IMG/VR virus record: IMGVR_UViG_3300033153_010326
Coordinates: 1 to 64,000 of that record
From: a virus
Direction: 5' to 3' (one strand)
Length of the DNA: 64,000 nt
Made by a program: the position numbers and the translations under genes. The notes beneath the pieces are model-generated. The model was not told where the DNA came from. It was given only the letters and a program-made list of their open reading frames with translations, and searched no databases. Within the stretch, counting starts at the first letter, position 1; each line of letters begins with the position of its first letter. Shown here in pieces: positions 45,826-53,534 of the stretch.

Positions 45826-46194
45826 ATGCCTTATATCTCAGCGAAAAATGATAGAAGAAAGAAATTAAGACATGGAGAACCTGCTTTAAATGCAGGAGAG
45901 TTAAATTATCAAATTTTCTATTATATTAAACATTATGATTGGAGAAAACATCACCAAATTGATTATACAATGATACAAACTATACATAAATTTGTTAATA
46001 AATTTTTAGGAAAAAATCCTAATTACCAGAGGTGGAATGATATGACAGGTTGTTTGATAAGATGTTATAAAGAAATTAAAAGAAGGTTGAATATAAATGT
46101 TAAGGAGATATTGATAGAGATTATGGAAGATTATGATAATGAAATTGCAAGATACGAAGATACTAAAATTATTTCTAATTCGGATGTAGAGTAG
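45826..46194 (+). CDS. conserved phage protein (MPYI...GELNY type)
   Basis: MPYI, GELNY, YE..KI..N.DV motifs. Confidence 0.55.
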   Translation: MPYISAKNDRRKKLRHGEPALNAGELNYQIFYYIKHYDWRKHHQIDYTMIQTIHKFVNKFLGKNPNYQRWNDMTGCLIRCYKEIKRRLNINVKEILIEIMEDYDNEIARYEDTKIISNSDVE

Positions 46195-46467
46195 GAGATA
46201 ATATGAAACTATTAGCTACTAAAAAAATGAAACAATTATTAAGAAAAGGAAAATATTTAGCAAAAAAAGATAAACTTAAAGTAACTAGTCCAGATTATAT
46301 GTATATGCTTATAAATGATACTCTTAAAAACGGATGGCATTATAATGTGGATTTATCTTATTCTGGAATACATGTATATGCTTTTAAACCTCCTTTGGAT
46401 TTTAGGGCTAGACCAGCAGATTATTATTTAGCAAGTAAATTTAAAAAACGAAAAGGAGGTGGTTAAT

Positions 46468-47144
46468 ATGATAGGTAAGATAATTAGAATCTTAAAATTC
46501 AAATTATTCTATACCTATCTTTGAAGCTAGCAGGAGCGATTGAGTTTGATACCAAAGATGGTGGTCAAACTTGGAGGAATAGTATAACTATTCCTTTAGA
46601 TGAAATGGGAATTTATGTTGGAGACCCTGTAAAGACTGAACCTGTTGCTACTGGTATGGATGTTATGGAAGCTCAAAATAAATTTAATGGGTGGATTCAA
46701 TCAGGTAATTATGATATATTTGAAAAGATGTTTACAAGAATTGTTCAAAAAGATATTAGATTAGTTAATAGAGCAGATTTTTTGATTGTTCATTTATTTC
46801 CTGATATACCTACTACTGGAACTATTCACGAAATGGCTTTAGCGTGGATGCAAAAGAAACCTATATATTTAATATGGAAAGATGCTAAGAGCAAATTATC
46901 AAAGTGGGCATTATATTTAGTTATTTCTTCAGGAGGGCGATTATTTGATAGTGAAAATAAACTTACAGAGTTTATAAGGGTAAAATATAATCTTAAAAAT
47001 CAAAGTTTTAGAGTTCAATTTATTCAAATTATAAAAGCCATAAGTAGACTTATAGAGGAAAATTTATATAATTTAAAAACGAATAGTAATGGTAATCAAG
47101 AAAAAATTAAACAGGACTTAGAAAAGAAAGAGGAGAAGAAATAA
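46468..47144 (+). CDS. nucleoside 2-deoxyribosyltransferase-like protein with interrupted 5' end
   Basis: (Y)LAGAIE..WR..DP..D...V.RADFLIV..TTGT.HE..A...KKPIY; the strong RBS and ATG at 46468 are out of frame with the body. Confidence 0.7.
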
Positions 47145-47860
47145 TGAGGCGATTTAAAGGAGGAGCTACCAGAAATAATGATGAAAATAAAAATGATTAT
47201 GATGGTTTTTTATCTTCCATGGTATTAAACAAATATGACCAATTTTTAGAAAGAGAAAATCAAATTGCATGGGCTTCTGGTTTGTTTGAAGGAGAGGGTT
47301 GTGTTTTTAAAGCTACTACAAAAAACAAACATGCTCGTTTAGAAATTAAATTAACAGATGAAGATGTATTACAAAGATTTTTAAAAATTGTTGGATATGG
47401 AAAAATATATGGGTCTTATTGGGCTAAAAAAAGTACAAAACCTTATTGGTCATGGCAATGCAACAAAGACCAAGAAACTATAGAAGTATTAAAATTACTT
47501 TATCCTTATTTAGGAACAAGAAGAAAAAATAGAGTAAAAGAAATTTGTTCTATAGAAAGACTTGCTGAAATAAATGCAATGCCTCCTTTAGTTATAAAAG
47601 CTTTTGGTGATTATATGACTAAACATAGAAAACAAGCAGATGGAAAGTTAAGACCAAGTGATAATTGGAAAAAAGGCATACCTCAAGAAGCTTATTTCCA
47701 ATCAGCATGGAGACATTTTTTAGATGTATATTTGCATCATAAAGGATATAATGATAAAACTACAGAAAATCTAGAAGATTCTCTTTGTGCATTGATTTTT
47801 AATATAATGGGATATTTGCATGAATTATTGAAAAATAAATTATTGAAGGATAAAAAATAA
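47144..47860 (+). CDS. dATP/dGTP diphosphohydrolase-like (DUF5664-type) protein with in-frame LAGLIDADG insertion
   Basis: GATR...K.DYDGFLS / PLVI..F..YM.KH...DNWKKGIP...SAWRH flanking WASGLFEGEG. Confidence 0.75.
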   Translation: MRRFKGGATRNNDENKNDYDGFLSSMVLNKYDQFLERENQIAWASGLFEGEGCVFKATTKNKHARLEIKLTDEDVLQRFLKIVGYGKIYGSYWAKKSTKPYWSWQCNKDQETIEVLKLLYPYLGTRRKNRVKEICSIERLAEINAMPPLVIKAFGDYMTKHRKQADGKLRPSDNWKKGIPQEAYFQSAWRHFLDVYLHHKGYNDKTTENLEDSLCALIFNIMGYLHELLKNKLLKDKK

Positions 47861-52028: not shown

Positions 52029-52499
52029 ATGGATGCCGATGGTGTTCGGCAGAATACCATCAAAATAAAAATAATGAAAAAATTAAAGATAAGTAAAAAA
52101 GATTTAATAAAAGCTTATAATATTGATAGATTAAAACTTCAAGAAATTTGTATTAGATTTGCTTGTGGAGAAACTACTGTAGTTAGATTATTAAAAAGAT
52201 ATAAGATTTTTAAAAGAGGAATGGTATCATCTATAGGAAATAAAAAGTATACTTCTAAAGGATATATTTTAATTTTATTACCATTTCATCCTTTTAGTTC
52301 AAAACGAGGATATGTTAGAGAACATAGATTAATGATGGAAAAGTATCTTGGTAGGTATTTAAAAAGAGAAGAAGTAGTTCATCATGAAAATGATATTAGA
52401 GATGATAATAGGATTGAGAATTTAAGATTATTTTCTAATCAAGGTAAGCATAACAAGTTTCATAGGAATCGTGTTAATAAAGAAAAAGGCAGTTTCTAA
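52029..52499 (+). CDS. HNH homing endonuclease
   Basis: YVREHRLMME..LGR.L...EVVHH.N..RDDNRIENL. Confidence 0.9.
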   Translation: MDADGVRQNTIKIKIMKKLKISKKDLIKAYNIDRLKLQEICIRFACGETTVVRLLKRYKIFKRGMVSSIGNKKYTSKGYILILLPFHPFSSKRGYVREHRLMMEKYLGRYLKREEVVHHENDIRDDNRIENLRLFSNQGKHNKFHRNRVNKEKGSF

Positions 52500-52531: not shown

Positions 52532-53534
52532 AGTAGTAAGGAGAATATAATGACTGATGAACAGATACTTAAAGAGGTTATAAATAAAGTAGTTAAGAAT
52601 GGATTAAAAGAAATAAATGGACTTCCCTATAATAAAGAATGTTTTTATAAGCCACATAAGAAGTTTCAGCAAATAGCTTTTGAGAATTTAGCAAAAGAGT
52701 TGCTTAGAAATAATAATTATATAAAGTTTATTTTTTCTTCTGAATTTGCAAAAATTTATTGGGGTGAAAATATTCCTATTAGAGAAGTAGGAAAAGGAGA
52801 TAAAATTGTAGGTTATGATATACCAAAAAAAGGCAGATTAAAATATTGGCAATATTATCAACATAAAATGTTAGATGAAATACAAGCTGGAAGAAATCTT
52901 TTAAAATATTTGGAGAAATTTTTATGAAAACGAGTTATTTAATTACTATTCCCTTTAGAATTATAGCAACTCTTTTTATATTAATAGTATCTATAATGTC
53001 AATACCAAACATGTTTTTAAATATTTTTTTAAGAGAAATGGAAATTATTTGGAGAAATAAATAATGAAAATTACTTCGCTTAAAGTAAAAAAGAAAGTCC
53101 GATTAGCAAGTATAAAAAGACTTAAAAATAATATAAAGGAAGTTGTTCATAATTGTCTTCTTGATATAGAAAAATATATTGTGGAAGATGTTATGAAATG
53201 TTTGAAAAAGGATGGAATTATTTATGCGAAAAACACGAAGAAAAATAGAAAGAAAAATACGAGGTGAAATAAGTAAACCTAAAAAGAGAAAGAATTGTAT
53301 ATTAAAACATTTAGATTCTTCAATAACAAATAGGTTTACTCGGATTCAATCTTATCTTATATTAATAGTAGATACTTTATTTATGATAATTTGTGCATAT
53401 TGGGCTTATTATGAAATATTTGTAAGGAGATAAATTGAAAAAATTAACTAAAAAACAAATAAATAAATGTAAACAACATTTGAAAATGAAGATGAAATTT
53501 GTATAAATTATATAGTTACAGGGATAGATAAAAA

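Follow-up and report, generated by a model that had tools for sequence, protein, structure and literature searches.

A conserved Leu-stop break linked to an HNH endonuclease gene in a viral deoxyribosyltransferase-like gene, a candidate natural stop-hop

To our knowledge, programmed translational bypassing in bacteria and phages is represented by essentially one well-studied example, T4 gene 60 and its homologs. The bypass in gene 60 reportedly lies within a MobA HNH homing endonuclease element. It was described that this bypass travels with the MobA endonuclease and that some phages keep it after the endonuclease has been lost (Manning and Atkins, bioRxiv 10.1101/2022.08.31.505936), and pairing of the exiting mRNA was proposed as the driver of forward bypass (bioRxiv 10.1101/2024.12.09.627546). 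Synthetic stop-hops in Escherichia coli need matched codons flanking the stop (Weiss, Dunn, Atkins and Gesteland 1987, cited in PMC5009743), and no natural stop-hop was known according to a 2016 review (PMC5009743). At a prfB-type site, an mRNA hairpin can replace the duplex between the Shine-Dalgarno (SD) sequence and anti-SD in vitro, and forward slippage at CUUUGA on 70S ribosomes is stimulated, in the absence of RF2, when a hairpin re-folds beside the E site (PMC6321510). Bypass inserts of Magnusiomyces capitatus mitochondria, termed byps, are summarised in 10.1101/2022.08.31.505936.

The locus described here lies in the window, which covers the initial 64 kb of a virus record of 104,368 bp bearing direct terminal repeats. 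Here, a gene for a putative nucleoside 2-deoxyribosyltransferase-like enzyme is interrupted near its 5' end by a leucine codon and a stop. The break is very probably a conserved, selected recoding site that belongs to an HNH homing cassette. As in T4 gene 60, the stop lies directly 3' of the proposed take-off codon, a matching landing codon follows downstream and a stem-loop precedes the take-off; the insert is located close to the gene's 5' end, immediately after an HNH gene with which it moves as a single cassette, the endonuclease has been lost from some carriers that kept the putative bypass, and the proposed purpose is the tolerance of a target-shielding insert. In contrast to gene 60, the gap is 3 to 5 nt instead of 47 and 6 to 8 nt instead of 50 would be moved, there is no room for an A-site take-off stem-loop, an internal SD or a forward slippage barrier, and the hairpin directly adjoins the take-off codon and extends over the entire upstream open reading frame (ORF) of only 14 to 18 codons, so that the nascent peptide is very short. 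The host gene is a different one and the endonuclease does not split it, take-off is from Leu CUN and not from Gly GGA, and the cassettes show no sequence relation, being alike in outline only (HNH and MobA were not compared).

The in-frame relatives CUU UGA CUU, CUG UAA CUG and CUU UAG CUA have exactly the form of the synthetic stop-hops. Those were artificial, of low efficiency and without stimulators, whereas the present site is natural, conserved and provided with a dedicated hairpin, and in the window it spans 8 nt with a change of frame. The prfB (RF2) +1 frameshift site shares the identical UAU CUU UGA and an RNA duplex just 5' of it, SD:anti-SD in prfB and an mRNA hairpin here. Unlike in prfB, the productive frame here is +2; the +1 frame from CUU UGA closes after 6 codons (the initial annotation had given a stop after 7). 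No SD-like sequence was found in 46500-46518, so that the internal SD of a prfB-type site is lacking, and relatives use CUG UAA, which has no +1 slip potential. The byps resemble the present inserts as short mobile inserts in conserved coding sequence that are tolerated through translational bypass, but they are mitochondrial, 27 to 55 nt long, spread like GC clusters and have no adjoining endonuclease gene.

Gene layout at the break and the enzyme family

The virus genome has a G+C content of 26.8%, and no tRNA genes were found in it. The features at the break, in window coordinates, are as follows.

46203..46466, + strand: 87-aa ORF without a Pfam or PHROG family, located where relatives carry the HNH gene
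46454..46460, + strand: Shine-Dalgarno sequence AGGAGGT, 7 nt 5' of the mini-ORF ATG (46468)
46468..46524, + strand: mini-ORF, 18 codons plus TGA, the enzyme's authentic N-terminus (N-terminal helix and most of strand beta-1)
46470..46519, + strand: hairpin, 50 nt, from the G of AUG to the C of the take-off codon
46519..46521, + strand: proposed take-off codon CTT (Leu 18), CTN in 10/10 broken alleles versus 3/17 unbroken
46521..46523, + strand: TTG in the body frame, overlapping the stop as TTGA, site of a rival +2 re-pairing or restart
46522..46526, + strand: proposed untranslated gap TGAAG, with the stop TGA (46522-46524) directly 3' of the take-off codon, then 2 bases
46527..46529, + strand: proposed (inferred) landing codon CTA (Leu); decoding would restart at GCA 46530
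46530..47144, + strand: deoxyribosyltransferase-like body, from AGAIE to the stop, intact and under purifying selection

The mini-ORF translates as MIGKIIRILKFKLFYTYL and has the 3' end TAT CTT TGA at 46516-46524; the ribosome-binding site, the ATG and the end of this frame were found exactly where the initial annotation had placed them. The continuation of the enzyme in another frame as LAGAIE was likewise confirmed, the body being open in the +2 frame from TTG 46521 / CTA 46527 to 47144, with 207 codons from the TTG and the beginning (M)KLAGAIE. Full-length homologs read ...KLKLFYTYLAGAIE..., and deleting 8 nt from the window gives the exact family sequence, as had been proposed for the beta-1 motif. 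Altogether, 64 homologs were found, mostly of 210 to 250 residues, and their N-termini read M(FAKIIKFLKL)KLFYTYLAGAIE; the mini-ORF is therefore the family's own N-terminus up to the Leu of YLAG.

The homologs carry both of the families PF05014 and PF15891, for which the truncated ORF scores just under the cut-off (27.5 versus 28.8 and 23.6 versus 30, respectively). The AlphaFold model of a full-length homolog (pLDDT 93) matches the structures of NDT, YtoQ and DNPH1 with a probability of 1.0 and a TM score of about 0.6 to 0.7 (target-normalised). By profile and predicted fold, the product can be placed in the nucleoside 2-deoxyribosyltransferase-like superfamily, without data on catalytic residues or activity. 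Strand beta-1 comprises residues 14 to 20, FYLYLAG, in the homolog model, which puts the break inside a core strand. No match to the enzyme gene was found in cultured phage records (DNA or protein) or in representative bacterial genomes.

Upstream of the break, the 87-aa ORF ends in bases (AAAGGAGGTGGT, about 46452-46463) that correspond to the 3' tail of the HNH gene in relative L013. A homolog of this ORF is present in L012 (254-502), elsewhere in that locus. A joining of ORF 46203-46466 to the body through the hairpin was rejected: the two share a frame in the window and not in L005, and the shared frame is thus a coincidence. In a contig from a marine metagenome run, 46163-46746 is replaced by 275 other letters between 46162 and the sequence at 46747, that is, the stretch is substituted in a relative.

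Recurrence of the break, hairpin covariation and HNH linkage

Loci fetched from viral and metagenome collections comprised 9 other distinct broken contigs and 17 distinct unbroken alleles. The break was observed at exactly the same codon in the 9 contigs and in one further, low-depth contig of the marine metagenome run, in five or six junction forms and two frames.

CUU UGA AG CUA: window, +2 frame
CUU UGA AG CUC: L013, +2 frame
CUU UGA CG CUA: L012, +2 frame
CUU UGA CG GUA: L005, L008, L021 and L029, +2 frame
CUU UGA CUU: L038/L041 and L042, in frame
CUG UAA CUG: L036, in frame

The low-depth contig is window-like and lacks 2 nt at 46523, which probably gives CUU UAG CUA, in frame; with a depth of 3.9, and with the DNA of this run seen as contigs only, it is a weak datum. 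One rule covers the junctions: a Leu codon of the CUN type comes first, then any of the stops, 0 or 2 further bases, a matching Leu triplet (GUA in four loci) and GCN GGN for Ala-Gly. In 10/10 loci, the take-off codon is immediately followed by the stop (UGA in 9, UAA in 1, and UAG in the low-depth contig). Take-off and landing codons co-vary, with CUU/CUU in L038/L041/L042 and CUG/CUG in L036. The window has CUU/CUA, both Leu CUN codons, as reading by the same tRNA would require, and the GUA of four loci matches at two of three positions. These four GUA loci also have the Tyr codon UAC instead of UAU, and the two changes together produce a 4-bp stem (UACC-UUUGAC-GGUA) that encloses take-off codon and stop.

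In every broken allele the body is intact, 200 to 247 codons long and without a second lesion, and dN/dS ranges from 0.09 to 0.33, pairs with both alleles broken included. The frame of the mini-ORF, its ATG and SD, and K[LI]FY[TV]YL were kept across lengths of 14, 16 and 18 codons, always with the stop just after the conserved Leu; the SD is retained in the broken relatives as GGAGGTG or GGGGGTG, and as GGAGTTG in L036. Given its recurrence in 9 other contigs, the break is, as far as the compared sequences can tell, far beyond chance. The broken alleles share cassette ancestry, and ten alleles do not equal ten independent events. A pattern scan of viral contigs for the CUU-UGA/UGG-CUU form found nothing, and the stretch was found in no sequencing run recorded as RNA.

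The hairpin arms 46470-46477 and 46512-46519 reported in the initial annotation were confirmed, and the 54-nt mini-ORF folds with -16.0 kcal/mol (z = -5.8 versus shuffles). A hairpin was present in 10/10 broken alleles, with minimum free energies of -8.8 to -16 and z of -2.7 to -6.9, whereas 0/17 unbroken alleles had it. In every broken allele it is closed by a pair between the G of AUG and the take-off codon's C. The comparison of homologs suggested at the outset brought out covariation at four pairs: compensatory double changes were observed at stem pairs 5, 6, 7 and 11, and they entail amino-acid replacements (G3 to D or S, T to V) tolerated in the family. Since MAFFT left the 5' arms of the 18- and 14-codon forms out of register, stem pairs were counted by a script anchored on the start and take-off codons. 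The first nine stem positions were 89% paired in register versus 30 to 41% with the 3' arm slid. Downstream of the take-off codon, no conserved structure was found in the 10 loci, only the local 4-bp UACC/GGUA stem of the four GUA loci.

One family of zinc-finger-plus-HNH endonucleases was observed directly upstream in 9/10 broken alleles and beside 0 unbroken alleles, a linkage absent from the initial annotation. The cassette HNH proteins match the PHROG HNH family with values down to 1.7e-11 and are 32 to 75% identical to the L008 copy. In the window, the HNH gene is absent and the unrelated 87-codon ORF abuts the retained, SD-bearing tail; by comparison of these sequences, the window has lost the HNH gene and kept the remainder of the cassette. 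Between L005 and the unbroken L022, the insertion upstream of the start is the HNH gene alone, placed between a DUF6899 gene and the start codon, and the mini-ORF is the native 5' end in altered form. Downstream, the broken L021 shares 93% identity with L022, a value that drops to 90% within the first 200 nt, and the homology ends exactly at the break. In the gene tree, broken alleles occur in four clades beside unbroken ones, and because of this scatter the element was interpreted as a mobile cassette like T4 mobA/gene 60. Taken as comparative evidence, the HNH linkage and the patchy distribution are the pattern of a homing cassette.

Reading across the break

The cassette in relatives consists of the free-standing HNH gene just before the enzyme start, the hairpin-forming first 14 to 18 codons and a 6- to 8-nt insert, which begins with a stop codon and lies between FYTYL and AGAIE of the conserved coding sequence. 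The ribosome is proposed to translate the mini-ORF and pause when its P site contains peptidyl-tRNA-Leu on CUU and its A site UGA; the hairpin would then re-fold behind it and pull the mRNA forward, the tRNA would release CUU and re-pair on CUA 8 nt downstream, and decoding would restart at GCA to give the normal protein ...FYTYL-AGAIE.... The insert probably splits the endonuclease target and would thereby shield carriers from cutting; the target and the immunity are inferred from the analogy with T4 mobA/gene 60 alone, without cleavage data. A role of the hairpin in forward slippage is plausible from the literature on CUUUGA and gene 60, the role itself being inferred. As the start codon is also covered by the hairpin, a function in the control of initiation cannot be excluded.

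As the productive event in the window, an 8-nt hop from CUU to CUA is reasonably likely, the hop and its efficiency being inferred in the absence of protein, ribosome-profiling or RNA data. The wider proposal, a natural selected stop-hop with the hairpin flush with the Leu-stop, in which 6 to 8 nt are skipped regardless of frame and which spread as the immunity module of the HNH cassette, we consider only slightly better than evenly balanced. A hop of tRNA-Leu over the stop was also the leading inference of the initial annotation, and it is now favored, without an experiment, by the coexistence of in-frame and +2-frame forms and by the covarying hairpin in register. Because the forms differ in frame, close cassette relatives by a 2-nt indel, a frame-indifferent mechanism fits best, and judged from the junctions this would be peptidyl-tRNA detachment and re-pairing on the next matching triplet. 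Several points count against the hop. The GUA landing triplet of four loci pairs with a Leu anticodon at only two positions, CUU and CUA in the window are synonymous and not identical, so that a single tRNA-Leu would have to pair with both (the phage encodes no tRNA, and those of the host are unknown), the +2-frame forms would also yield the full-length body by a slip onto UUG or a UUG start, and CUU UGA is prone to the +1 slip that is unproductive in the window.

The in-frame Leu-stop-Leu relatives coexist with +2-frame forms, and for this reason neither a single frameshift nor a TTG start explains all of them. A +2 forward slip (equal to the -1 frame), in which peptidyl-tRNA-Leu would move from CUU to the overlapping UUG 46521-46523 and continue with AAG CUA GCA, is unlikely; in its favor, UUG stands at +2 in 7/7 +2-frame loci, including the four with GUA as the +8 triplet, and an upstream hairpin favors forward slippage at CUUUGA (PMC6321510). 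The product would carry two extra residues, FYTYL-KL-AGAIE, and thus an insert inside beta-1, which speaks against this slip; such an insert may be tolerated, since a database protein record reads FYTYLWLAGAIE, although the record may only reflect TGA read as W. By reasoning from pairing rules, not computation, UUG pairs no better than the +1 triplet UUU with the anticodon reading CUU. The slip is out of frame in CUU UGA CUU, CUG UAA CUG and CUU UAG CUA, where a hop or readthrough would have to be used, and two mechanisms would therefore be needed for one cassette family; readthrough by itself would serve the in-frame forms only. Hairpin-bridged (split) ribosome-binding sites exist in T4 genes 38 and 25. 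A comparable arrangement without any recoding, with the mini-ORF as a leader and the enzyme started at TTG 46521 through termination-reinitiation at UUGA or a hairpin-bridged SD, appears improbable. In its favor, the +2-frame loci, the window among them, have this TTG in frame and overlapping with the stop, the distance from the SD is about 10 nt with the hairpin folded, and gene callers placed the protein start there. The suggestion in the initial annotation that the hairpin brings the SD next to this TTG remains possible for the window only, because the in-frame relatives either lack the TTG or have it in another frame, with no in-frame start near the break in L036, L038, L041 and L042. Of the seven residues of beta-1, almost unchanged throughout the family, the product would also miss four or five, and the kept frame, ATG, SD and family sequence of the mini-ORF, with the stop exactly after the conserved Leu, argue against a mere leader.

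That the cassette is purely selfish, and that the break inactivates a dispensable gene whose bodies are intact only owing to recent invasion, is highly improbable in our estimate. In its favor, homing is a fast mode of spread, as illustrated by the downstream difference of only 7% between L021 and L022, and the enzyme gene is accessory, to judge from the missing homologs in cultured phage records and representative bacterial genomes. Yet 10/10 broken alleles have bodies free of a second lesion, broken-allele pairs remain at the low dN/dS given above, and the cassette has diversified while keeping the hairpin pairing through compensatory changes, the matched flanking codons, the ORF and the SD, all of which the window still keeps without an HNH gene. 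An assembly or sequencing error, or TGA as a sense codon, can practically be dismissed, since nothing beyond the bare appearance of a split gene points to it: the break is present in 10 independent assemblies and one further run, the window needs a change of frame and not just sense reading of a stop, relatives have TAA and probably TAG at the same place, and TGA is an ordinary stop in the virus genome, where it ends 11/80 long ORFs. Recurrence, intact bodies, low dN/dS and the normal use of TGA together make assembly error, variant code and simple decay excluded or unlikely. Transcriptional slippage was rejected as the site has only three Ts.

If the stop-hop reading is true, the locus carries a miniature bypass element whose origin is independent of T4 gene 60. 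With a length of about 60 nt and naturally occurring variants that differ in gap length, frame, stop and flanking codons, such a compact site would then be a simple system for the study of peptidyl-tRNA release and re-pairing, and a way to study mRNA folding behind the ribosome as a driver of forward movement. It would also imply that recoding can be taken up repeatedly by homing endonucleases as a means of protecting the carriers. For annotation, short phage genes labeled frameshifted or stop-interrupted beside HNH genes would be neither pseudogenes nor genes to be started at the next codon.

Other mobile elements around the locus

A second, distant HNH gene is located in the window at 52029-52499 (+); its product and the cassette HNH of L013 are 38% identical over 78 residues. 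No obvious break was seen in the gene 3' of it (52550-52927), and a rough survey of 79 loci flanking distant HNH relatives turned up no cassette of this kind; the sole hairpin match in this survey, in L057, looks like a terminator and was rejected. In L006, L007 and L027, a 30-residue fragment at 50-139 with 67% identity to the cassette HNH lies about 1.36 kb upstream of an unbroken allele and may be the remnant of an earlier cassette.

The neighboring gene at 47144-47860 (+) matches the dATP/dGTP diphosphohydrolase N-terminal family (PF18909) by its last 65 residues only and contains an in-frame LAGLIDADG endonuclease domain (PF00961, residues 45-131) without obvious intein blocks. In L038 (445-1146), L041 and L042 (433-1134), the enzyme gene has both the putative hop cassette and an intein-like insert after ...QDPC, and the matching database protein P0045 carries the LAGLIDADG_3 and Intein_splicing families. 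The enzyme gene thus appears to be a hotspot for selfish elements.
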